64,000 nucleotides of DNA from Escherichia coli (GTDB lineage Bacteria > Pseudomonadota > Gammaproteobacteria > Enterobacterales > Enterobacteriaceae), in assembly GCF_003334785.1 (NCBI RefSeq), contig NZ_QOWV01000001.1; one strand, written 5' to 3'. Of the stretch, positions 8,127 to 48,118 are shown one piece after another (position 1 is the first letter of the stretch; every line of letters begins with the position of its first letter). The position numbers were made by a program, and so were the translations under genes. The notes beneath the pieces were generated by a model that did no database searches, had not been told where the DNA came from, and saw nothing but the letters and a program-made list of their open reading frames with translations.

Positions 8127-9241
8127 GCCTGCCTTTTTTACGCACGCTGCAAGGCGATCGTTTTTTTCAGTTATTAATTCTTGTTGGTATCGGATTAAGC
8201 TTTTTCGTGCCCTTTGCACCGAAATCCTGGCCTGCTGCTATCGACTGGCACACCATCATCACCTTAAGCGGCCTGATGCTGCTGACCAAAGGTGTGGAGT
8301 TAAGCGGTTATTTTGATGTGCTGGGGCGCAAAATGGTGCGCCGCTTTGCTACGGAGCGTCGGCTGGCGATGTTTATGGTGCTGGCGGCGGCGCTGCTTTC
8401 TACCTTTCTGACCAACGATGTCGCGCTGTTTATTGTTGTTCCGCTGACTATCACGCTAAAAAGACTGTGTGAGATCCCGGTTAATCGGCTGATTATTTTT
8501 GAGGCGCTGGCAGTCAACGCTGGTTCGCTACTGACGCCAATTGGCAACCCGCAAAATATTCTTATCTGGGGACGTTCTGGTCTTTCGTTTGCCGGATTTA
8601 TTGCCCAAATGGCACCGCTGGCTGGCGCAATGATGCTGACGCTCCTGCTCCTGTGCTGGTGTTGTTTCCCTGGAAAGGCGATGCAATACCATACGGGGGT
8701 GCAAACACCGGAGTGGAAACCGCGGCTGGTGTGGAGTTGTCTGGGGCTGTATATCGTCTTTCTGACGGCGCTGGAGTTCAAACAAGAGCTGTGGGGACTG
8801 GTGATTGTGGCGGCAGGCTTTGCGCTGCTGGCACGTCGCGTGGTGCTCAGTGTGGACTGGACGCTGCTGCTGGTGTTTATGGCGATGTTTATCGACGTCC
8901 ATTTACTGACCCAGCTTCCAGCGTTGCAAGGCGTGTTGGGTAACGTGAGTCATCTATCTGAACCCGGGTTATGGTTAACGGCAATCGGTTTATCGCAGGT
9001 GATCAGTAACGTGCCGAGTACCATATTGTTGCTGAACTATGTGCCGCCGTCTTTATTACTGGTATGGGCGGTAAACGTAGGTGGCTTTGGGTTATTACCC
9101 GGATCGCTGGCAAATTTGATTGCGCTACGTATGGCGAACGATCGCCGCATCTGGTGGCGTTTCCATCTCTATTCAATACCGATGCTGTTGTGGGCGGCGT
9201 TGGTGGGATATGTTTTGTTAGTTATACTCCCGGCCAACTAG
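8123..9241 (+). CDS. ybiR: Putative anion transporter, ArsB/NhaD permease superfamily
   Basis: 372-aa polytopic membrane ORF in an operon with mntR. Confidence 0.88.
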
Positions 9242-20840: not shown

Positions 20841-21043
20841 GAAAACACTCCTGCGGAGGCAAAATCGAATTTGCCTATTATGTCAGAAAAACGCCACAGA
20901 CTGTATGCCACCTCGGGCGTAGCGCTGGGTCCTGCCTTTACATGCCATATCCATCTTTCTATATTCAAAAATTGAATGAGTAATTCATAAAAATTCTGAT
21001 ATTTATAGCAAAAGTGGCGAACCACCCTTAATGGACGAATACT

Positions 21044-22009
21044 ATGGGCAAAGCAGTCATTGCAATTCATGGTGGCGCAGGTGCAATTAGCCGCGCGCAG
21101 ATGAGTCTGCAACAGGAATTACGCTACATCGAGGCGTTGTCTGCCATTGTTGAAACCGGGCAGAAAATGCTGGAAGCGGGCGAAAGTGCGCTGGATGTGG
21201 TGACGGAAGCGGTGCGTCTGCTGGAAGAGTGTCCACTGTTTAACGCCGGAATTGGCGCTGTCTTTACGCGTGATGAAACCCATGAACTGGACGCCTGTGT
21301 GATGGATGGTAACACCCTGAAAGCCGGTGCGGTGGCGGGCGTTAGTCATCTGCGTAATCCGGTTCTTGCCGCCCGGCTGGTGATGGAGCAAAGCCCGCAT
21401 GTGATGATGATTGGCGAAGGGGCAGAAAATTTTGCGTTTGCTCGTGGCATGGAGCGCGTCTCGCCGGAGATTTTCTCCACGCCTTTGCGTTATGAACAAC
21501 TACTGGCAGCGCGCAAGGAAGGGGCAACCGTCCTCGACCATAGCGGTGCGCCACTGGATGAAAAACAGAAAATGGGCACCGTGGGGGCCGTGGCGTTGGA
21601 TTTAGACGGCAATTTGGCGGCAGCCACGTCCACAGGCGGAATGACCAATAAATTACCCGGACGAGTTGGCGATAGTCCCTTAGTGGGTGCCGGATGCTAC
21701 GCCAATAACGCCAGTGTGGCGGTTTCTTGTACCGGCACGGGCGAAGTCTTCATCCGCGCGCTGGCGGCATATGACATCGCCGCGTTAATGGATTACGGCG
21801 GATTAAGTCTCGCGGAAGCCTGCGAGCGGGTAGTAATGGAAAAACTCCCTGCGCTTGGCGGTAGCGGTGGCTTAATCGCTATCGACCATGAAGGGAATGT
21901 CGCGCTACCGTTTAACACCGAAGGAATGTATCGCGCCTGGGGCTACGCAGGCGATACGCCAACCACCGGTATCTACCGTGAAAAAGGGGACACCGTTGCC
22001 ACACAGTGA
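21044..22009 (+). CDS. iaaA: Isoaspartyl dipeptidase / L-asparaginase (Ntn hydrolase)
   Basis: 321-aa ORF with autoprocessing site region GTVGAVALD. Confidence 0.9.
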
Positions 22010-27454: not shown

Positions 27455-29803
27455 ATGCTGAGTTTATACGAAAAGATAAAGATAAGGCTGATAATTTTAT
27501 TTTTATTGGCAGCACTGTCATTTATTGGTCTTTTTTTCATCATTAACTATCAACTGGTATCGGAGCGCGCGGTAAAACGTGCCGATAGCCGCTTTGAACT
27601 TATTCAGAAAAACGTTGGCTATTTCTTTAAAGATATTGAACGTTCGGCCCTGACATTAAAGGACTCACTGTATTTATTAAAAAATACAGAGGAGATTCAA
27701 CGCGCCGTGATTCTTAAAATGGAAATGATGCCATTTTTAGACTCGGTGGGACTGGTACTTGATGATAATAAATATTATCTTTTTTCGCGGAGGGCGAATG
27801 ATAAAATCGTTGTTTATCATCAGGAACAAGTAAATGGACCGCTTGTCGACGAGTCAGGGCGGGTTATTTTTGCCGATTTTAACCCATCGAAACGACCGTG
27901 GTCGGTGGCTTCAGATGACTCTAACAACAGCTGGAATCCGGCATACAATTGCTTTGATCGTCCGGGTAAAAAATGTATCTCTTTTACGCTACACATCAAC
28001 GGCAAAGATCACGATTTGTTAGCGGTGGATAAAATTCATGTCGATTTAAACTGGCGATATCTGAACGAGTATCTTGATCAAATCAGCGCTAATGATGAAG
28101 TTCTATTTTTGAAACAAGGCCATGAGATCATTGCCAAGAATCAACTCGCTCGTGAAAAACTGATTATTTATAATAGCGAAGGTAATTATAATATTATTGA
28201 TTCTGTCGATACTGAATATATCGAAAAAACATCAGCGGTGCCAAACAACGCATTATTCGAAATCTATTTTTATTATCCTGGCGGTAATTTATTGAACGCA
28301 TCAGATAAACTTTTTTATCTGCCGTTTGCGTTCATTATTATCGTATTGCTGGTGGTTTATTTAATGACCACTCGTGTGTTCCGTCGGCAATTTTCTGAAA
28401 TGACAGAGCTGGTTAATACGCTGGCGTTTTTGCCTGACTCAACGGATCAAATCGAGGCTCTGAAAATTCGTGAAGGCGATGCGAAAGAGATTATCAGCAT
28501 CAAAAATTCGATCGCGGAAATGAAAGATGCCGAAATTGAACGGTCAAATAAATTGCTCTCACTGATCTCTTACGATCAGGAAAGTGGTTTTATTAAAAAT
28601 ATGGCGATTATTGAGTCTAACAATAATCAGTATCTGGCTGTGGGGATCATCAAACTGTGTGGTCTGGAAGCCGTGGAAGCGGTGTTTGGTGTTGATGAGC
28701 GCAATAAAATCGTCAGGAAATTGTGTCAGCGAATTGCCGAGAAATATGCGCAATGCTGCGATATCGTGACATTCAATGCCGATCTCTATTTACTTCTGTG
28801 TCGGGAAAATGTACAGACATTTACCCGTAAAATAGCGATGGTAAACGATTTTGACAGCAGCTTTGGCTACCGCAATCTGCGCATCCATAAGTCTGCCATT
28901 TGTGAACCTTTGCAGGGGGAAAACGCCTGGAGTTACGCAGAAAAACTGAAACTGGCGATTTCCAGTATCCGTGACCATATGTTCTCAGAGTTTATTTTCT
29001 GTGATGACGCGAAACTCAACGAAATAGAAGAGAATATCTGGATTGCGCGTAATATTCGCCATGCAATGGAAATTGGCGAACTATTCCTCGTCTATCAACC
29101 GATCGTTGATATTAACACCCGCGCCATTCTGGGCGCGGAGGCGTTGTGCCGTTGGGTGTCTGCGGAGCGGGGGATCATTTCACCGCTGAAGTTCATTACC
29201 ATTGCTGAAGATATCGGGTTTATCAATGAGCTGGGTTATCAGATTATTAAAACGGCAATGGGTGAATTCAGACATTTTAGTCAGCGTGCGTCGCTGAAGG
29301 ATGATTTCTTACTGCATATTAATGTTTCGCCCTGGCAGTTAAACGAACCACACTTTCATGAGCGTTTTACCACCATCATGAAAGAAAATGGCCTGAAGGC
29401 GAACAGCCTCTGTGTTGAGATCACTGAAACCGTGATCGAGCGAATTAATGAACATTTTTATCTCAATATTGAACAACTGCGTAAACAAGGGGTACGGATA
29501 TCGATTGATGACTTTGGCACCGGTTTGTCAAACCTGAAACGTTTTTATGAAATTAATCCAGACAGCATAAAGGTGGACTCGCAATTCACCGGCGATATTT
29601 TCGGTACTGCGGGAAAAATTGTGCGCATTATTTTCGACCTGGCACGCTATAACCGGATCCCGGTGATTGCGGAAGGCGTAGAGAGCGAAGACGTTGCGCG
29701 CGAATTAATCAAATTAGGATGTGTTCAGGCTCAGGGGTATCTGTACCAGAAACCCATGCCATTCTCCGCCTGGGATAAAAGTGGAAAATTAGTAAAAGAG
29801 TAG
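27455..29803 (+). CDS. pdeI: c-di-GMP phosphodiesterase with periplasmic sensor domain and EAL domain
   Basis: Start chosen at [12 protein letters not shown] (782 aa); C-terminal EAL-type region; AT-rich gene. Confidence 0.85.
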
Positions 29804-42435: not shown

Positions 42436-42451
42436 TAGATAAGTTTTAGAT

Positions 42452-42465
42452 AACAAAAAACCCAT
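42452..42465. repeat. Candidate attL core (left copy of 14-bp direct repeat)
   Basis: AACAAAAAACCCAT is identical to 54039-54052. Confidence 0.6.
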
Positions 42466-42484
42466 TTATGTAAACGGGTTAATG

Positions 42485-42521
42485 AAAACAATAAGTTAGG
42501 TTAAAAACAATAAGTTAGGTT
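42485..42521. repeat. Tandem 18-bp direct repeat (2 copies) next to the int 3' end; candidate integrase arm-type sites
   Basis: AAAACAATAAGTTAGGTT at 42485-42502 and 42504-42521, followed by TGGTGGT-CAG-TGGTGGT. Confidence 0.5.
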
Positions 42522-42539
42522 GGTGGTCAGTGGTGGTTA

Positions 42540-43592
42540 TTACGGGGTAATGCCAACCGCTGCCGCCACTTTGTCGCCACTTGGCAGCGTTGCCAGAGGA
42601 TTGAAACGGAGCGCCGTTTCTAGATGATCCGGTGCCAGATGTGCGTAACGCATAGTCATTTTTATATCGTGGTGTCCGAGAATTTTTTGTAAGGCCAGAA
42701 TGTTTCCACCCGACATCATGAAGTGCGCCGCAAACGTATGGCGCAGAACGTGTGTGAGTTGACCGCGAGGGAGCACGATAGACGTTTTTTCCATCACGGA
42801 TAAAAATTGAAAATAGCAGTCTGTGAAGAAATTGAACCCATCAAGCGCCATGATCTCTTCGTAAAGCTCTTTACTGATAGGGATGCTTCTGTTTTTCTTC
42901 CCCTTCGTTCTGACAAAGGTAATTCGGTATTTGGTCACCTGTGAGCGGGTAAGATTTACGGCTTCACGCCAGCGTGCGCCTGTGCTTAAGCATATCTTAA
43001 CTACCAGTGCCAGAATTGGGTCCTGACGTTTGCAATCAGCCAGCAATTCAACAATCTGCTCATGGGTAAGCCATGCCATCTCTTTTTCTGCGATGGTGAA
43101 TTTTCGCATGTTCTCCAGTGGGTTCGGATACGACCATTCGCCCAGACGGGATAGTTCGCTAAAAACACTACTTAGATAGCTTTGCTCCAGGTTAATGGTG
43201 ACCGGGCTTGCTCCTTTCTTCCATTTCTCGCTGAAGTAGATCTCGCCTGTCAGGCGTTTATCTCGATAGTGGGCAAACATTTTAGAGGTGAGATCGGTTG
43301 CAAGAGGATTGCCCAGAGCGTCAACCATCAACAGCAATTTGTCATAGACATGCTGCCCAGCTGTCAGAGATTTACCATGTAGTTTGAACCATAGCTCAAC
43401 CACGTCTTTCAGTGTTCGACGATCCACTGATTCACCCAGCCAGGGCTTTGCTTCGGTTTCTTCCATCGTGTGGCGCTCAAAAGCCAGTGCTTCGCCTTTG
43501 GTGGCGAATTGTTTACGCACACGACGCCCACTTCGTCCGGCGGGGTAACATTCGCAAAGCCATTTCCCTGTGGTTAGTTTTCGTACTGCCAT
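42540..43592 (-). CDS. int: Phage integrase, tyrosine recombinase (P2/186 Int-like)
   Basis: 350-aa ORF with catalytic signature STGARWREA, HVLRHTFAAHF and MRYAHL. Confidence 0.92.
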   Translation of the reverse strand: MAVRKLTTGKWLCECYPAGRSGRRVRKQFATKGEALAFERHTMEETEAKPWLGESVDRRTLKDVVELWFKLHGKSLTAGQHVYDKLLLMVDALGNPLATDLTSKMFAHYRDKRLTGEIYFSEKWKKGASPVTINLEQSYLSSVFSELSRLGEWSYPNPLENMRKFTIAEKEMAWLTHEQIVELLADCKRQDPILALVVKICLSTGARWREAVNLTRSQVTKYRITFVRTKGKKNRSIPISKELYEEIMALDGFNFFTDCYFQFLSVMEKTSIVLPRGQLTHVLRHTFAAHFMMSGGNILALQKILGHHDIKMTMRYAHLAPDHLETALRFNPLATLPSGDKVAAAVGITP

Positions 43593-43674
43593 AAAAAGCC
43601 CTCATATCAGAGGGCTAAATTTAACTGTATATGTAACCAGTAATCAATGTGTGATTACTATGAAACATACATTG

Positions 43675-45351
43675 CTAAGCAACATGTAGTTCATCGTTGG
43701 CGGAAGTGGCTGCTTTGCGCTCCTGCTCAATAGCTAGAGACTCTCTATATTCTTTCGCCTCTGCAAACATTGTCCAGTGGGCGTTGATGTTCATGTCTTC
43801 AATAACTGATTTGATTTCTTTTAAATTTACGTTAAAAAACTCTTTTCGTGAGTTAATTTTATTGACCTGCTTTTCGTTGAAAACTTTATGCAGATGGTTT
43901 TCTAATGATGGTGCATCATCACTATAAATCATCGCATGAACATCGAACGAAAAAGGAACACTAGCATCTCCGAGTTCACGAACACGATCAAGTGGTTCAA
44001 GGCGGCGTGTCATTCCAATTTTATATACATCTTCGCCAAATGAACCAATATTACTAATGATATAGACGTGGCCTGATCTGGTTTGTTGAGCCATAGAAAT
44101 AGCTCGTTGATTTTTAGCTTCAGCTTCTTCATATTTTAACTGTAGTTCAGCTATTTTTTGCTCTAAAGCTAAGCGTTGTTCTTCATTTGCAAGCATAAGT
44201 TCTTTCGTTGCTTTATTTATAGCTTGCTGAATAGCTTTTTCTTCTTTTTCAGCTTCTTTTATCGCTTTTTCATATTCTCTACGAGCTCTTTCCTCTTCAC
44301 GAAGCTGTTCTTTAATCCTTCTTTGCTCTTCTTTTTCTTCGAGCATAATTTCATTAACTGCTACACCCCATTTTAGCTCGTTGAGTCTTGCCTGAAGATA
44401 GATGTCACTTATTTTTGCGGACCTAAAGGCAGAGCCATTGTAATTTACTAGTTGAAATGCATCTTTTATTTCTTGGGAAAGTTTTCCAAAATTGTTGTGT
44501 TTGACTTTTGATAAAATACTGTCAACTCTTCCATTGAAGGCATCCAAAACAAAGTTTATGGCAGTATTACGCCTGTTTTGCTCAACATAATCACACGAAG
44601 CAGCTTTATTAGTTTTTATTAATGATTTGGTTAACTCTCTGGCTTTTTGTAATTCCTTGCCTGCATCTGTAAATTCATAATTTTCTGCCAGCTCATCAAG
44701 TACACTACGGTTAGGGATGATCCATTCATCACCATAACCTTCAATTTTATTTTTCATTGATTTTGCAACTGCTTCATATTTTTCTGCAAACTCTTTAGCT
44801 TCATATGCTGAACCAGCAATCTCCTTTGCTCTTTCTTCTGCATCAGAAATAATTTTTACTGCATTGTCATTAGCATTTGAGATTAGCTCATTTGCTTTAT
44901 TATTAGCATTATCAAGACGTTCTTTGGCTTTCAGGCGTGCATCGCGAGCGTCTTTGGTGATTGCTATAGCTTCGCTATTAGCGTTGCTTATTGTCATCTG
45001 AGCTTGATAATTTGCTTCGTTTACTGTTTTAGCCGCCTTAATTTGGGCTTCATCTATTTTTTGCTTGGCTATTGAGTCCGCATTTTTTATCTTATTCTCT
45101 GCATCCATTACTGCGCTGTGCAATTCTTCGTATTGCCACAATGGTGCTGCTCGCCCTTCAAGCTCTGATAATTCTCGTACGGTCTGTGCTAGTTTTTCTT
45201 GATTTTCAATCAGTTGGTTAGAAAGGGCTATGTTGTTAGCTGTCAGGTTATCTATAGCCGCTTTGTGTTTTTTACTTTGTTTAAATAATATTACAGCTAG
45301 AACAGGGGCGAGAAATGCTAATAAGAGTATAACGATGGCAAATGAATTCAT
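43675..45351 (-). CDS. Prophage accessory protein: N-terminal TM helix, long coiled coils, C-terminal GIY-YIG-like (T5orf172-type) domain; candidate anti-phage gene
   Basis: 558-aa ORF between int and the CI-like gene, co-oriented with both; AT-rich; hydrophobic N-terminus FAIVILLLAFLAPVLAVILF; K/E/A-rich heptad regions; C-terminal GHVYIISN...YKIGMTRR...E...N motif block. Confidence 0.8.
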   Translation of the reverse strand: MNSFAIVILLLAFLAPVLAVILFKQSKKHKAAIDNLTANNIALSNQLIENQEKLAQTVRELSELEGRAAPLWQYEELHSAVMDAENKIKNADSIAKQKIDEAQIKAAKTVNEANYQAQMTISNANSEAIAITKDARDARLKAKERLDNANNKANELISNANDNAVKIISDAEERAKEIAGSAYEAKEFAEKYEAVAKSMKNKIEGYGDEWIIPNRSVLDELAENYEFTDAGKELQKARELTKSLIKTNKAASCDYVEQNRRNTAINFVLDAFNGRVDSILSKVKHNNFGKLSQEIKDAFQLVNYNGSAFRSAKISDIYLQARLNELKWGVAVNEIMLEEKEEQRRIKEQLREEERARREYEKAIKEAEKEEKAIQQAINKATKELMLANEEQRLALEQKIAELQLKYEEAEAKNQRAISMAQQTRSGHVYIISNIGSFGEDVYKIGMTRRLEPLDRVRELGDASVPFSFDVHAMIYSDDAPSLENHLHKVFNEKQVNKINSRKEFFNVNLKEIKSVIEDMNINAHWTMFAEAKEYRESLAIEQERKAATSANDELHVA

Positions 45352-45371
45352 TTTAAAATCCTTTTACTATA

Positions 45372-45968
45372 TTAATTCGAGACTATTGTACTTCTTATAC
45401 AAGCAACCACTTCAATATCAGAAAATGCACATTCAAAGCTATTCTCTGCTGTTGTAATTTTAATCATTCCTTTAGGAAGCCTTGTGATTTTTCGAATGGA
45501 ATAGGTTCCGTCGATATTGATTAACCAGTTTCCATCAAGTACTTCAGAAAATTTTTGATCACAAATGTATGTGACGAGTCCATCCTGAACAACAATTGGT
45601 GATGAAAGGTTTGCAGGAAGAAATGATGAATCGAAGACATATGAACCGTCTTCAATCATTTTGCCTGCGGCAAGGCGAAACTTAACAAGCTCTTCTGTAG
45701 CTGCTGTCAGCGAGCTTTGCTTAAGGCCTTGTCCGGTAGTTAACCATTTGAGGGAGGTTCCTGTTTCAAGAGCACATTGGATTATCCAGTCAGCAGGAAA
45801 TGTATCCCGCAAATACCTGTTCGCTAGTGTGCTTTTTGATACTTCCAAGTGATCAGCTAAAGCCTGTCGTGTCGTAAAGCCATAGGCTTCGACTAATCGC
45901 TCAATCGCAGCCTTACCACCTTTATTGGGATTTATTTTGATCTCACTTGGGTACTTTGATGTTGACAT
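45372..45968 (-). CDS. cI: Phage immunity repressor (186 CI-like)
   Basis: 198-aa ORF with HTH region FTTRQALADHLEVSKSTLANRYL, transcribed divergently from the apl/cII-like genes. Confidence 0.8.
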   Translation of the reverse strand: MSTSKYPSEIKINPNKGGKAAIERLVEAYGFTTRQALADHLEVSKSTLANRYLRDTFPADWIIQCALETGTSLKWLTTGQGLKQSSLTAATEELVKFRLAAGKMIEDGSYVFDSSFLPANLSSPIVVQDGLVTYICDQKFSEVLDGNWLINIDGTYSIRKITRLPKGMIKITTAENSFECAFSDIEVVACIRSTIVSN

Positions 45969-46013
45969 ATCTCTTTTGCGATCCTAGTATCAGTTTTGTA
46001 CCCAATTGGGTAC
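45962..46013 (+). promoter_or_regulatory. Candidate rightward early promoter (pR-like) with palindromic operator
   Basis: -35 TTGACA (45962-45967), 17-bp spacer, -10 TAGTAT (45985-45990), then perfect 16-bp palindrome GTACCCAATTGGGTAC (45998-46013). Confidence 0.5.
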
Positions 46014-46063
46014 TTGTCACGATTACTACAGGCTCACCACAAGCCAATAGGAGATGTTGCATC

Positions 46064-46285
46064 ATGACCCCTAACATTTCAATAACTCTGAATACGCCAC
46101 ACGTCACAATCGAGCGTTATAGCGAACTTACTGGTCTTTCAATCGACACAATCAACGATATGTTGGCGGATGGTCGCATTCCTCGGCATCGTCTTCGTAA
46201 AGACAAGAAAAGAGAAAAGGTAATGATCAACCTTGCTGCTCTTACCGTTGATGCACTTACTGATTGCAATGTTGTATTCAACTAG
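46064..46285 (+). CDS. Small DNA-binding switch protein (186 Apl / P2 Cox-like)
   Basis: 73-aa [35 protein letters not shown] with HTH-like segment, first gene of the rightward operon; GGAGA RBS. Confidence 0.65.
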
Positions 46286-46317
46286 TTCCATTTTGGGATA
46301 CATCAGAGGTGTCGACC

Positions 46318-46827
46318 ATGTTTGATTACCAAGTTTCCAAACATCCACATTTTGATGAAGCCTGTCGAGCATTCGCACTGCGCCACAATCTGGTGCAACT
46401 GGCAGAACGTGCGGGCATGAATGTGCAGATTCTGCGGAACAAGCTGAACCCAGCTCAACCTCATTTATTAACCGCACCAGAAATCTGGCTGCTTACCGAT
46501 CTGACTGAAGATTCAACGTTGGTAGATGGTTTTCTGGCACAGATTCATTGTCTGCCATGTGTACCGATTAATGAGGTAGCAAAAGAGAAACTGCCGCATT
46601 ACGTCATGAGCGCAACTGCAGAGATCGGGCGTGTTGCAGCAGGTGCGGTATCTGGTGATGTAAAAACTAGTGCCGGTCGTCGTGATGCTATCAGCAGCAT
46701 TAACTCTGTAACACGACTGATGGCGCTGGCTGCTGTTTCATTGCAAGCCCGTTTACAGGCTAATCCTGCGATGGCGAGTGCAGTTGATACCATGACTGGC
46801 CTTGGTGCTTCATTCGGTTTGCTGTGA
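46318..46827 (+). CDS. cII: Phage regulatory protein CII (186 CII-like)
   Basis: 169-aa product [45 protein letters not shown]... resembling 186 CII as I recall it; GAGGTG RBS 7 nt upstream. Confidence 0.8.
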
Positions 46828-46834
46828 GGTGTTT

Positions 46835-47131
46835 ATGCTGACGAAAGAACCATCATTTGCATCGCTGCTGGTAAAACAAAGCCCGGCAATGCACTACGGT
46901 CACGGCTGGATCACGGGTGAGGATGGAAAACGCTGGCATCCATGTCATTCACAAGATGAATTGCTGTCTGAATTGACCACGAGGAAACGGAGAAAGTCCA
47001 AATGTATGCGGCAGAAAGTGAAGTGGTTTATCAGTTTCGTTACAGAGGGGAGAGTTATTCAGTACCTGAAGATGATTTGCTCTGTTGCTATCCGTCATTG
47101 TCGGGCGATGGCAGTTACTTTTTCACGTTAA
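46835..47131 (+). CDS. Hypothetical small early protein; 3' end uncertain
   Basis: ATG with GAGGTG RBS; the last 130 nt overlap the next ORF in another frame and look less protein-like. Confidence 0.45.
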   Translation: MLTKEPSFASLLVKQSPAMHYGHGWITGEDGKRWHPCHSQDELLSELTTRKRRKSKCMRQKVKWFISFVTEGRVIQYLKMICSVAIRHCRAMAVTFSR

Positions 47132-47226
47132 AGGATGGGACGTTTTTACGGGGAGAGCAGGTTAAAGAGACGATACGAAAAAATGTATCTCCTCTTGAGC
47201 GTTACCGTAAGAACAAAGAACGATAG
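47002..47226 (+). CDS. Hypothetical small early protein
   Basis: 74-aa ORF MYAAESEVVYQFRYRGESYSVPEDD... with GGAGAAAG RBS. Confidence 0.55.
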   Translation: MYAAESEVVYQFRYRGESYSVPEDDLLCCYPSLSGDGSYFFTLKDGTFLRGEQVKETIRKNVSPLERYRKNKER

Positions 47227-47248
47227 CTGCGTTTGGGGGATATGAAGT

Positions 47249-47590
47249 ATGGCAATTAATGGCGCTGCAGCAACTGTTCCATTAAGCCCCGGTGAACGCC
47301 TGAATGGACTTAATCACATTGCGGAGTTAAGGGCGAAAGTTTTTGGCCTGAATATTGAGTCAGAGCTTGAGCGGTTTATTAAAGATATGCGTGATCCACG
47401 GGATATCAATAATGAACAAAATAAACGGGCACTGGCTGCCATATTCTTTATGGCAAAAATTCCAGCTGAACGTCATAGCATCAGCATTAATGAGCTGACC
47501 ACTGACGAAAAGCGGGAGCTGATTAAAGCAATGAATCATTTTCGTGCAGTGGTGAGCTTATTTCCCAGACGGCTAACCATGCCGAATTAA
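47249..47590 (+). CDS. Hypothetical phage early protein
   Basis: 113-aa ORF with purine-rich RBS, co-directional in the early operon. Confidence 0.6.
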   Translation: MAINGAAATVPLSPGERLNGLNHIAELRAKVFGLNIESELERFIKDMRDPRDINNEQNKRALAAIFFMAKIPAERHSISINELTTDEKRELIKAMNHFRAVVSLFPRRLTMPN

Positions 47591-47657
47591 CCAACTAATG
47601 AAATTAATGGCGTAAACCCGCCGGGCATCCCTTTATCTAAATTCAGGAGAATTGATT

Positions 47658-47891
47658 ATGCGTAATATTGAAACCCTCACGACTAAAACCGGACCGGATG
47701 ACGCAGGGCTTAATATTTTACTGACAGAGGCTCGTCTGGAAGAACGCCGGGCAAGGGCTGAAGCAATGGCTGCTCGCCTTGATAGCCTGGCGTGTCATAT
47801 CTCATCCCGCCAGCTAAACCACGTGGAAGCGGCAGAACTGCTGCGCGTGACTGCTGAAGCAATCCAGAACGAAGCGCAGGAGATCCACTAA
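47658..47891 (+). CDS. Hypothetical phage early protein (P2 orf80/81-like position)
   Basis: 77-aa ORF from ATG with AGGAGA RBS (the track's TTG start at 47652 is rejected); stop overlaps next start. Confidence 0.6.
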   Translation: MRNIETLTTKTGPDDAGLNILLTEARLEERRARAEAMAARLDSLACHISSRQLNHVEAAELLRVTAEAIQNEAQEIH

Positions 47892-48118
47892 TGGCTGATG
47901 CAATGGATCTCGTACAGCAGCGCGTTGAAGAAGAACGCCAGCGCCATATCCGTGCAGCCCGTGCCAAATCACCGGGCGTGTCACGCGTACTTTGCATTGA
48001 ATGTGAAGCGCCAATTCCGCCAGCACGACGCCGCGCCATTCCGGGAGTGCAGCTTTGCATTACCTGTCAGGAAATCGCAGAACTGAAAGGCAAACATTAC
48101 AACGGAGGTGCTGTATGA
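47891..48118 (+). CDS. TraR/DksA-family C4 zinc-finger protein
   Basis: 75-aa ORF with CIECEAPIP...CITCQ four-cysteine motif; translationally coupled to neighbours. Confidence 0.75.
   Translation: MADAMDLVQQRVEEERQRHIRAARAKSPGVSRVLCIECEAPIPPARRRAIPGVQLCITCQEIAELKGKHYNGGAV

Follow-up and report, generated by a model that had tools for sequence, protein, structure and literature searches.

Tandem repeats between the att core and the integrase gene of a 186-like Escherichia coli prophage are probably IHF sites next to candidate Cox operators

Between the att core and the 3′ end of an integrase gene in Escherichia coli lies an 18-bp sequence repeated head to tail, with a single base between the copies and TGGTGGT-CAG-TGGTGGT immediately after them, which raises the question of what protein, if any, these repeats serve. 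We analyzed them within a stretch of 64,000 nucleotides of contig NZ_QOWV01000001.1 (assembly GCF_003334785.1), hereafter the window. An initial annotation had described the repeats and taken them for integrase arm-type sites, and its description of both their form and their placement, between the core end at 42465 and the int stop codon at 42540-42542, was confirmed by reading the sequence and by Tandem Repeats Finder.

42485-42502 and 42504-42521: 18-bp tandem repeat AAAACAATAAGTTAGGTT, a single A between the copies, as read from the sequence

Tandem Repeats Finder reported 42485-42521 with a period of 19, 1.9 copies, a 100% match and a score of 74, and a separate repeat search recovered the same 18-mer family at 42485 and 42504. 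With up to three mismatches allowed, AAAACAATAAGTTAGGTT was found at two places only in the 64-kb window (42485 and 42504), against 0.05 expected; the 18-bp tandem duplication is real and far beyond chance. The TGGTGGT-CAG-TGGTGGT stretch occupies 42521-42537, its first T being the last T of the second 18-mer, and the repeat block ends 3 bp short of the int stop codon. Exact 7-mers recurring at +10 were counted five times in the window against approximately 3.9 expected, so the TGGTGGT pair alone is unremarkable.

The element to which the repeats belong is a deletion-crippled 186-like (Peduoviridae) prophage of 11.6 kb, whose insertion point is the ybjL terminator, between rcdA and ybjL. It spans 42466-54052, beyond which K-12 sequence resumes, and the homology to K-12 (attB), hence the att core, ends at 42465. 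Its ends are laid out as follows.

42441..42465, + strand: attL core, host version AAGTTTTAGATAACAAAAAACCCAT, matching K-12 attB to 42465
42459..42480, − strand: intrinsic terminator of int transcription, with hairpin AACCCGTTTACATAAATGGGTT and then TTTTGTT (terminator scan: nine pairs and a T tail)
42540..43592, − strand: int, tyrosine integrase of 350 aa (ORF; PHROG integrase families), stop codon at 42540-42542
54028..54052, + strand: attR core, phage version AAATTTCAGGCAACAAAAAACCCAT, with the intact host ybjL terminator next to it

The initial annotation had itself pointed out that the repeats would be host sequence if they were present in the rcdA-ybjL region of prophage-free strains; K-12 and other prophage-free strains match only to 42465, and because K-12 homology stops there, the repeats are phage DNA. 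Exact identity between attL and attR is limited to 42452-42465 (AACAAAAAACCCAT), so the crossover must fall inside this segment. On the other side, attR carries CAGGCAACAAAAAACCCAT at 54034-54052, and the phage version of the core reaches further left (AAATTTCAGGC...), this longer form being identical to the attB of other enterobacteria; core identity in other hosts extends to AATTTCAGGCAACAAAAAACCCAT. The att core consists of the T-tract and the descending stem of the ybjL terminator, and the int terminator shares bases with it, its 3′ half and T-tract being the att core. Relatives have C or T at 42475, which gives G-U or A-U in a minus-strand RNA, whereas the plus strand would give an A-C mismatch. 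An excess of structure in the repeat region, which forms the int 3′ UTR, was not detected (z = −0.11), the terminator hairpin alone folding, and no Rfam family matched the region; an RNA-level function of the repeats was rejected on these grounds.

An uninterrupted attP of 165 bp was found between ogr and int in the Klebsiella phage clone KP12, and it is composed of the left part of the window attR and the right part of the window attL. Also found were the gene order ogr/B-attP-int, a tyrosine integrase with two domains and, as the first gene of the early operon facing cI, a Cox/Apl gene. Within the literature library searched, no paper described a prophage at rcdA/ybjK-ybjL. The best megablast phage match, vB_EcoM-813R9, was rejected as a source of attP, being a prophage prediction with host flanks, and KP12 and ESSI2_ev129 were used as attP references instead. 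Scanning viral contigs for int returned 80 loci, all 99-100% identical, nearly all of which are cut 3 bp past the int stop codon and therefore give no information on att. Searching 100,044 species genomes for the core together with the phage hairpin yielded 15 enterobacterial loci; combined with phage and E. coli loci these made up 20 distinct P′ (int-side) arms, 19 of which align gapless, from Escherichia, Klebsiella, Citrobacter, Enterobacter, Raoultella, Kluyvera, Silvania and Huaxiibacter.

The first protein to be considered is the integrase itself. The initial annotation had read the 18-bp and TGGTGGT repeats as integrase arm-type sites of the P′ arm, with a P arm that was asymmetric or decayed, and several observations speak for this: they are direct repeats adjoining the core on the int side, the GTGG of TGGTGGT is complementary to the CCAC of the arm-type core, and 186 itself has one inverted arm-type site besides its direct ones. 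What sites this integrase would prefer can be predicted from its sequence. It is 55-57% identical to 186-type phage integrases and approximately 39% identical to P2 Int, and its N-terminal arm-binding domain is 58% identical to that of 186, with W11/E14/Y16 as in 186 versus Y/D/R in P2, the residues at the positions proposed to discriminate 186-type from P2-type Int (PMC3448106). The arm-type consensus has been given as tgccGCCActt for the 186 type and tgTGGaCa for the P2 type (PMC3448106), and with a 186-like Int N-terminal domain GCCAC-type sites are predicted, a wholly different arm sequence not being expected. In the GenBank record of 186 the arm consensus is YAYCGCCAYTY, and three sites are placed to the left of the core and two to its right. 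Comparison with the arm sites of P2/186-family phages, as the initial annotation had proposed, located matches to this 186-type consensus at 42561-42582 and 53965-53986, and not in the 18-bp units.

42561-42571 and 42572-42582, + strand: predicted P′ arm-type Int sites TGCCGCCACTT and TGTCGCCACTT, each 10/11 to YAYCGCCAYTY, 11 bp apart
53965-53975 and 53976-53986, + strand: predicted P arm-type Int sites TGCCGCCATTT and TGTCGCCATCG, 10/11 and 8/11, 11 bp apart, directly after the ogr stop codon
53942..53952, − strand: possible third, inverted P-arm site GAGCGCCACCT, 8/11, inside the 3′ end of ogr

The P′ arm doublet lies at +96 and +107 from the core end, within the 3′ coding end of int, and its 186 counterparts, TACCGCCACTT and TATCGCCATTC, lie at the identical +96 and +107 (the core ends at 21030 in 186 and at 42465 in the window); the doublet is conserved in nearly all of the 20 relatives. 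The P doublet is 63 and 52 bp from the core, at the same distances as in KP12, 4LV2017 and ESSI2_ev129, and in 186 likewise an inverted site (AGTGGCGGTA) is found upstream of two direct P-arm sites. Scores of at least 8/11 to the arm consensus form a background of 1% of window positions, and the best score of the 18-bp repeat region (42479-42528) is 7/11. As the initial annotation had stated, the right end holds no copy of the 18-mer (up to three mismatches allowed); a different repeat, the GCCAY doublet, does occur on both arms. The integrase arm sites are thus predicted, as the best match, to be these GCCAY doublets and not the 18-bp repeats, and since near-consensus doublets stand on both arms, symmetric and intact, the formerly inferred asymmetry does not exist and decay need not be invoked. 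With near-consensus doublets on both arms, those of the P′ side exactly at the 186 positions, an 18-bp unit that scores at most 7/11 and has no P-arm copy, and an Int N-terminal domain that shares 58% identity, and all three discriminator residues, with its 186 counterpart, the assignment of the repeats to integrase is very improbable. What stands of the original proposal of recombination-protein sites in a P2/186-family att arm is that the repeats are phage DNA in the P′ arm and very probably bind proteins that take part in recombination; the integrase arm-type assignment falls away. A link to arm sites persists for the second TGGTGGT copy only, in that the corresponding columns of relatives hold an inverted near-consensus arm-type site, AATCGCCACTC (10/11; minus strand, 42531-42541), which covers the second GTGG copy and has diverged in the window lineage. 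The second copy may alternatively be a decayed inverted arm-type site, which Int rather than Cox would bind. AZ147 (L003), which had seemed to combine a different integrase with the same repeats, was rejected as such a case: its Int N-terminus shows 99% identity, and what sets it apart is an orf69-like insertion following the arm sites.

The 19-bp units are more probably read through a host protein. The IHF consensus is WATCAANNNNTTR; IHF covers approximately 35 bp and bends DNA sharply. Each unit of the tandem contains an IHF-like motif, which matches eight of the nine specified positions, with AAACAA instead of WATCAA.

42485..42503, + strand: unit 1 of the 19-bp tandem, with IHF-like AAACAATAAGTTA at 42486-42498, 8/9 of WATCAANNNNTTR, +21 from the core end
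42504..42522, + strand: unit 2 of the 19-bp tandem, with IHF-like AAACAATAAGTTA at 42505-42517, +40 from the core end; predicted principal IHF (H′-type) site
54004..54016, − strand: IHF-like site AATCATGATGTTA of the P arm, 8/9, oriented opposite to the P′ sites and 22 bp away from the core

Among the 14 relatives whose units have not become identical to each other, 12 have a unit 2 that matches perfectly, at 9/9 (AATCAATAAGTTA and variants), and 11 have a unit 1 that matches at 8/9. In unit 1 the columns A-A-A-C-A and T-T are invariant across the 20 distinct relatives, while the spacer columns and the 3′ end of the unit vary; column information there is 2.0 at W, A, x, C, A, T and T, whereas three of the four N positions reach 0.3-0.8, and unit 2 is similar. 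As the invariant columns are those that IHF specifies, the conservation follows the IHF consensus and not the arm consensus, which is a further point against assigning the units to integrase. The P′ arm is also collinear with that of 186, with IHF-like motifs at +21 and +40 in the window and at +20 (AATCAATAGTATG, 8/9) and +40 (TATCATTGACATA, 7/9) in 186, where the annotated IHF DNase I footprint, 21057-21086, corresponds to +27..+56 and contains the +40 motif. In PSP3 a tandem IHF-like pair, AAACAATCACTTA and AAACAACTAGTTA, is found 20 bp apart and 55 bp before the arm doublet of that phage, the distance to the doublet being that of the window pair. On the P arm, ESSI2_ev129 has a perfect 9/9 match, AATCAATAGATTA, which shares the strand and the 22-bp distance of the site in the window.

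Matches of at least 8/9 to the IHF consensus occur at 5.9e-4 per window position, and the reconstructed attP holds three against 0.28 expected. In composition-matched shuffles of the 74-bp arm, one match (at least 8/9) arose in 12-25%, two or more in 1-4%, and a perfect match in 0.5-1.3%, narrower ranges of 1-2% and 0.5-0.8% also being given for the last two outcomes. A single 8/9 match being common in shuffles (approximately 16%), the window sequence by itself is weak evidence for IHF, and the case rests on conservation and positional homology rather than on that sequence alone. On these grounds we consider it somewhat better than even that the 19-bp units represent one or more IHF sites of the P′ arm, in the attL of a 186-like prophage, with TGGTGGT as candidate Cox operators. 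At a spacing of 19 bp, IHF, which covers approximately 35 bp, cannot occupy both motifs in full.

The exactness of the duplication is a separate matter. In relatives the two units are diverged, as in AAAACAATGACTTGCAAGA and TAATCAATAAGTTAGGTTA, and the exact 18/19 identity is confined to one lineage, comprising the window, 4LV2017, KP12, AZ147 and the loci L117 and L132, two Escherichia sp. loci being included. Both homogenized units of this lineage combine a 5′ portion from unit 1 with a 3′ portion from unit 2, and other E. coli prophages at the same site (ECO2947 and N4220121) have diverged units that represent intermediate states. The arm is carried by 1090 of 5426 complete E. coli genomes (approximately 20%) and also by Klebsiella phages such as 4LV2017, and just 26 of the 1090 arm-carrying E. 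coli genomes are at least 99% identical to the window arm. Diverged relatives together with lineage-limited identity indicate that the exact duplication is, as judged from these alignments, a recent homogenization, within an E. coli/Klebsiella lineage, of an old and diverged motif pair. The relatives have GAGTGGCGATT at the position of the second TGGTGGT copy, which looks to have been homogenized in the same manner.

These distributions leave room for the view that the exact duplication is neutral, a recent slippage or conversion in a spacer whose length alone matters, with IHF-like matches arising from AT-richness. Such a view would accommodate the restriction of exact identity to one lineage, the diverged units of ECO2947 and N4220121, the small number of nearly identical arms (26 of 1090), the 8/9 IHF match seen in approximately 16% of shuffles, and the nearly invariant arm length, with 19 of 20 relatives gapless. 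It does not account for CAA and TT being invariant while neighboring columns vary, for the perfect consensus kept in 12 of 14 diverged relatives from several genera, for the motif pair recurring at this position in 186 and PSP3, with integrases just approximately 55% identical, or for the coincidence of the 186 motif with an experimental IHF footprint; we therefore regard a purely neutral origin as decidedly unlikely.

We then turned from the IHF-type units to the adjoining TGGTGGT stretch and to the directionality factor of the prophage.

42521..42548, + strand: candidate Cox operators GTGGT (42523), GTGGT (42533) and GGGGT (42544), with 10/11-bp phasing, +56..+83 from the core end
46064..46285, + strand: cox, 73-aa Cox-like excisionase/repressor (phrog_575, E = 9.6e-32)
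46016..46040, − strand: switch-region candidates GTGGT (46040-46036), GTAGT (46029-46025) and GTGAC (46020-46016), 24-48 bp upstream of cox

The Cox protein is identical in Klebsiella phage 4LV2017, 66% identical in ESSI2_ev129 and 29% identical to 186 Apl, and the TGGTGGT stretch lies within +45..+91, the interval of the five 10-bp-phased Apl operators of 186. A test for three phased GTGGT sites, a motif chosen post hoc, found 11 triples in the window versus 5.2 ± 2.1 in shuffles; it caught the P′ arm and also, reading the opposite strand, the doublet of arm sites, but missed the cI-cox switch region. Helically spaced GTGGT pairs numbered 16 in the window, counting both strands; three of them belong to the P′ arm, and a single one falls in the switch region, where 0.024 is expected in 95 bp. 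In the switch, GTGGT and GTAGT are 11 bp apart, the third site, GTGAC, has two mismatches, and the repeats run in the direction opposite to those of the P′ arm. 4LV2017, whose Cox is identical to that of the window but whose CI repressor is different, carries this block in conserved form. An unbiased 12-mer comparison of the P′ arm with the cI-cox switch in four phages gave nothing exceeding shuffles. PSP3 offers an analogue, with TGCAG/TGCAG/TGCAA in the P′ arm and TGCAC/TGCAC in the switch region. In HP1, the Cox motif is GGTMAWWWWA. In P2-like phages, directionality factors recognize direct repeats spaced by one helical turn, both in attP and in the switch (PMC7498355), and P2 Cox binds both places and protects at least 70 nt (PMC3936717). 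It is thus plausible, but unproven, that the TGGTGGT repeats are Cox operators.

A wider role for Cox can also be proposed, in which the 19-bp units themselves are Cox operators, within a long array from 42485 to approximately 42550 or within a Cox/IHF composite, and are not IHF sites. This would be in keeping with directionality factors binding direct repeats of the arm between core and arm sites, spreading and having low specificity (PMC7498355), with the 12-bp overlap of the Apl and IHF footprints in 186, and with the length of at least 70 nt protected by P2 Cox (PMC3936717). The period of the units is, however, 19 bp and not 10-11 bp, the unit has no internal half-repeat, and nothing unit-like is found in the cI-cox switch, where Cox must also bind. 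Moreover, the unit motif is kept across phages whose Cox is only 66% (ESSI2_ev129) or 29% (186 Apl) identical, and is present in PSP3 too, whose switch-proximal gene product looks quite different. Since the motif is conserved despite divergent Cox, a host factor fits better than a fast-evolving phage protein, and we judge the extension of Cox binding to the 19-bp units unlikely.

Taking the 19-bp units as IHF sites, the P′ arm would read, from core to int, as terminator, two tandem IHF-type motifs, GTGGT-type repeats and the arm doublet TGCCGCCACTT/TGTCGCCACTT. Given this anatomy, how it is conserved and how it lines up with the footprinted 186 site, we infer that host IHF would bind the repeat region, mainly at the unit-2 motif (42505-42517), with unit 1 serving as the upstream half of the approximately 35-bp IHF site or as an alternative register. 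The sharp bend introduced by IHF would let Int, held on the arm doublet by its N-terminal domains, reach the core with its catalytic domains. Cox bound to the adjacent GTGGT repeats would reshape attL for excision, and the same kind of repeat would be recognized at the cI-cox switch. A more speculative elaboration is that the two IHF motifs, 19-20 bp apart in this prophage family, 186 and PSP3, would be mutually exclusive registers whose bends differ by approximately 70 degrees, one integrative and the other excisive and selected by Cox, and that homogenization of the 19-bp and TGGTGGT units in the lineage would reflect concerted evolution of a directional switch; we regard this as very unlikely.

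The attP of 186 (Eganvirus; NC_001317) was reportedly described by Dodd, Egan, Shearwin and colleagues. It resembles the arrangement predicted for the window in its int-side order of core, IHF site, directionality-factor operators and two direct arm sites 11 bp apart, in the arm consensus YAYCGCCAYTY, in the W/E/Y residues of the Int N-terminal domain, in the arm sites at +96 and +107, and in a left arm that has an IHF site and, besides two direct arm sites, an inverted one. The two differ in several respects. The core of 186 is the 3′ end of tRNA-Ile, whereas that of the window prophage is the ybjL terminator; the directionality factor is Apl in 186 and a 73-aa Cox of phrog_575, 29% identical to it, in the window; and the five TTGCC-like operators of 186 are known from footprints, in contrast to two or three recognizable GTGGT-like putative ones in the window that are known from sequence. 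In 186, orf69 lies between the arm sites and int, while the window lacks orf69 and its arm sites therefore fall inside the int coding end. The P arm of the window is shorter, because the int terminator on the P′ side overlaps the core.

Lambda attP carries, on its P′ arm, the H′ IHF site and then the arm sites P′1-P′3, with the Xis sites on the P arm, away from int. Like lambda, the arrangement in the window would use an IHF bend between the core and the arm-type sites to let a heterobivalent integrase bridge both, and the IHF consensus WATCAANNNNTTR is the same; it is unlike lambda in integrase family branch, in arm sequence and in the candidate Cox sites lying on the int-proximal arm, as in P2 and 186. 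With P2 (Peduovirus) it shares the gene order ogr-attP-int and a compact attP with a two-domain Int, and it would share the use of IHF and Cox and the binding of Cox to attP and the switch region that is known in P2 (PMC3936717, PMC3448106). The window lacks, however, the P2-type arm sites (tgTGGaCa) and the cox boxes TTAAA(G/C)NC(A/C) of P2, and its Int, at approximately 39% identity to that of P2, has the 186-type discriminator residues. Salmonella phage PSP3, whose attP was compared by sequence, has the tandem IHF-like AAACAATCACTTA/AAACAACTAGTTA 20 bp apart, 55 bp before a GCCGCCACTT/GTCGCCA doublet, with a phage-specific 10-11-bp-phased repeat (TGCAG) between them that recurs in the switch as TGCAC; it differs in core, integration site, operator motif and early-gene product.

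Overall, this is ordinary, textbook attachment-site anatomy in an uncharacterized but very common 186-like prophage family, and no new biology is implied. Its value lies mostly in annotation, as the map of core, IHF, Cox and arm sites shows which 165 bp are the functional attP. Such a map is useful for engineering or curing these prophages or for using the integrase as a tool, where the repeats are not to be mistaken for arm sites. As a general rule, motifs common to distant phages would point to a host factor and to the conserved Int N-terminal domain, and a phage-specific, helically phased repeat would point to the excisionase.

Comparison with the Klebsiella phage 4LV2017 identified the prophage as a deletion derivative. 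The two are collinear up to gpA (4LV2017 position 8139), after which the correspondence jumps to gpT (4LV2017 position 29657), so that relative to 4LV2017 approximately 21.5 kb carrying the head, lysis and tail genes has been lost. The deletion joins the replication endonuclease in frame to the tape measure protein, giving a fused product of 1034 aa. This gpA-gpT junction was found in 0 of 5,426 complete E. coli genomes, and each half on its own was common among them. The features concerned are as follows.

Features of the prophage and its ends
42452-42481 and 54039-54100: attachment core and terminator stretches (in the ybjL terminator, its T-tract and the base of its stem)
43675-45351, minus strand: 558-aa gene between int and cI, a PADLOC match to PD-Lambda-1
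45947-45957: GGGTAC half-site inside the cI start region
45998-46013: perfect 16-bp palindrome GTACCCAATTGGGTAC in the cI-cox intergenic region
48969-52073: fused gene region, junction near 50269/50270 by comparison with 4LV2017

Since 4LV2017 has a different gene in the position of the 558-aa gene, the gap between int and cI seems to serve as a slot for variable cargo. The window's gene matched the anti-phage defence protein PD-Lambda-1 with an E value of 2.4e-120. The RefSeq name of its homologue is "SNIPE associated domain-containing protein", and the name given in the phage records is "chromosome segregation ATPase". In the neighbouring cI-cox intergenic region, a promoter (TTGACA-17 bp-TAGTAT) is directly followed downstream by the palindrome, and this palindrome and the GGGTAC half-site are probably the CI operators of the prophage's immunity type.

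The attachment core consists of two elements of the ybjL terminator, its T-tract and the base of its stem, and this terminator stays intact in attR after integration; the int terminator in attL is built on the same core bases. At 42475, C/T variation among relatives keeps the pairing (G-U or A-U) in the minus-strand RNA only. The left part of the core differs between E. coli attB, AAGTTTTAGAT, and the phage, AAATTTCAGGC (42441-42451 versus 54028-54038), and the phage version is present in other enterobacteria. This mismatch makes attB imperfect in E. coli K-12-type strains and places the crossover inside AACAAAAAACCCAT. The vB_EcoM-813R9 "phage" record (L002, ON470620.1) contains the host genes rcdA, ybjJ, ybjI and ybjH, and is thus a predicted prophage flanked by host sequence. 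Clone KP12_3 of Klebsiella phage KP12 (L005, OM835953.1) is filed under Vequintavirinae, but its genome is P2/186-like, with ogr-attP-int.

On the int side, some same-site E. coli prophages carry an extra small ORF of 270-315 bp between the arm-type doublet and int (L003, 3207-3476; L140, 1919-2233), placed similarly to orf69 of 186, whereas in the window the int coding sequence itself runs through the arm sites. This difference makes the arm doublet a recombination boundary between modules. In the Salmonella phage PSP3, the P' arm has TGCAG/TGCAG/TGCAA with a phasing of 11 and 10 bp (L142, 780-810), and TGCAC/TGCAC, 11 bp apart, lies directly upstream of the first early gene (L143, 1335-1365). 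These TGCAG/TGCAA and TGCAC repeats are probably directionality-factor operators; no published description of the PSP3 TGCAG/TGCAC repeats was found.

Despite the deletion, int, cox, attL and attR all appear intact, and for this reason the prophage remnant may still be able to excise.
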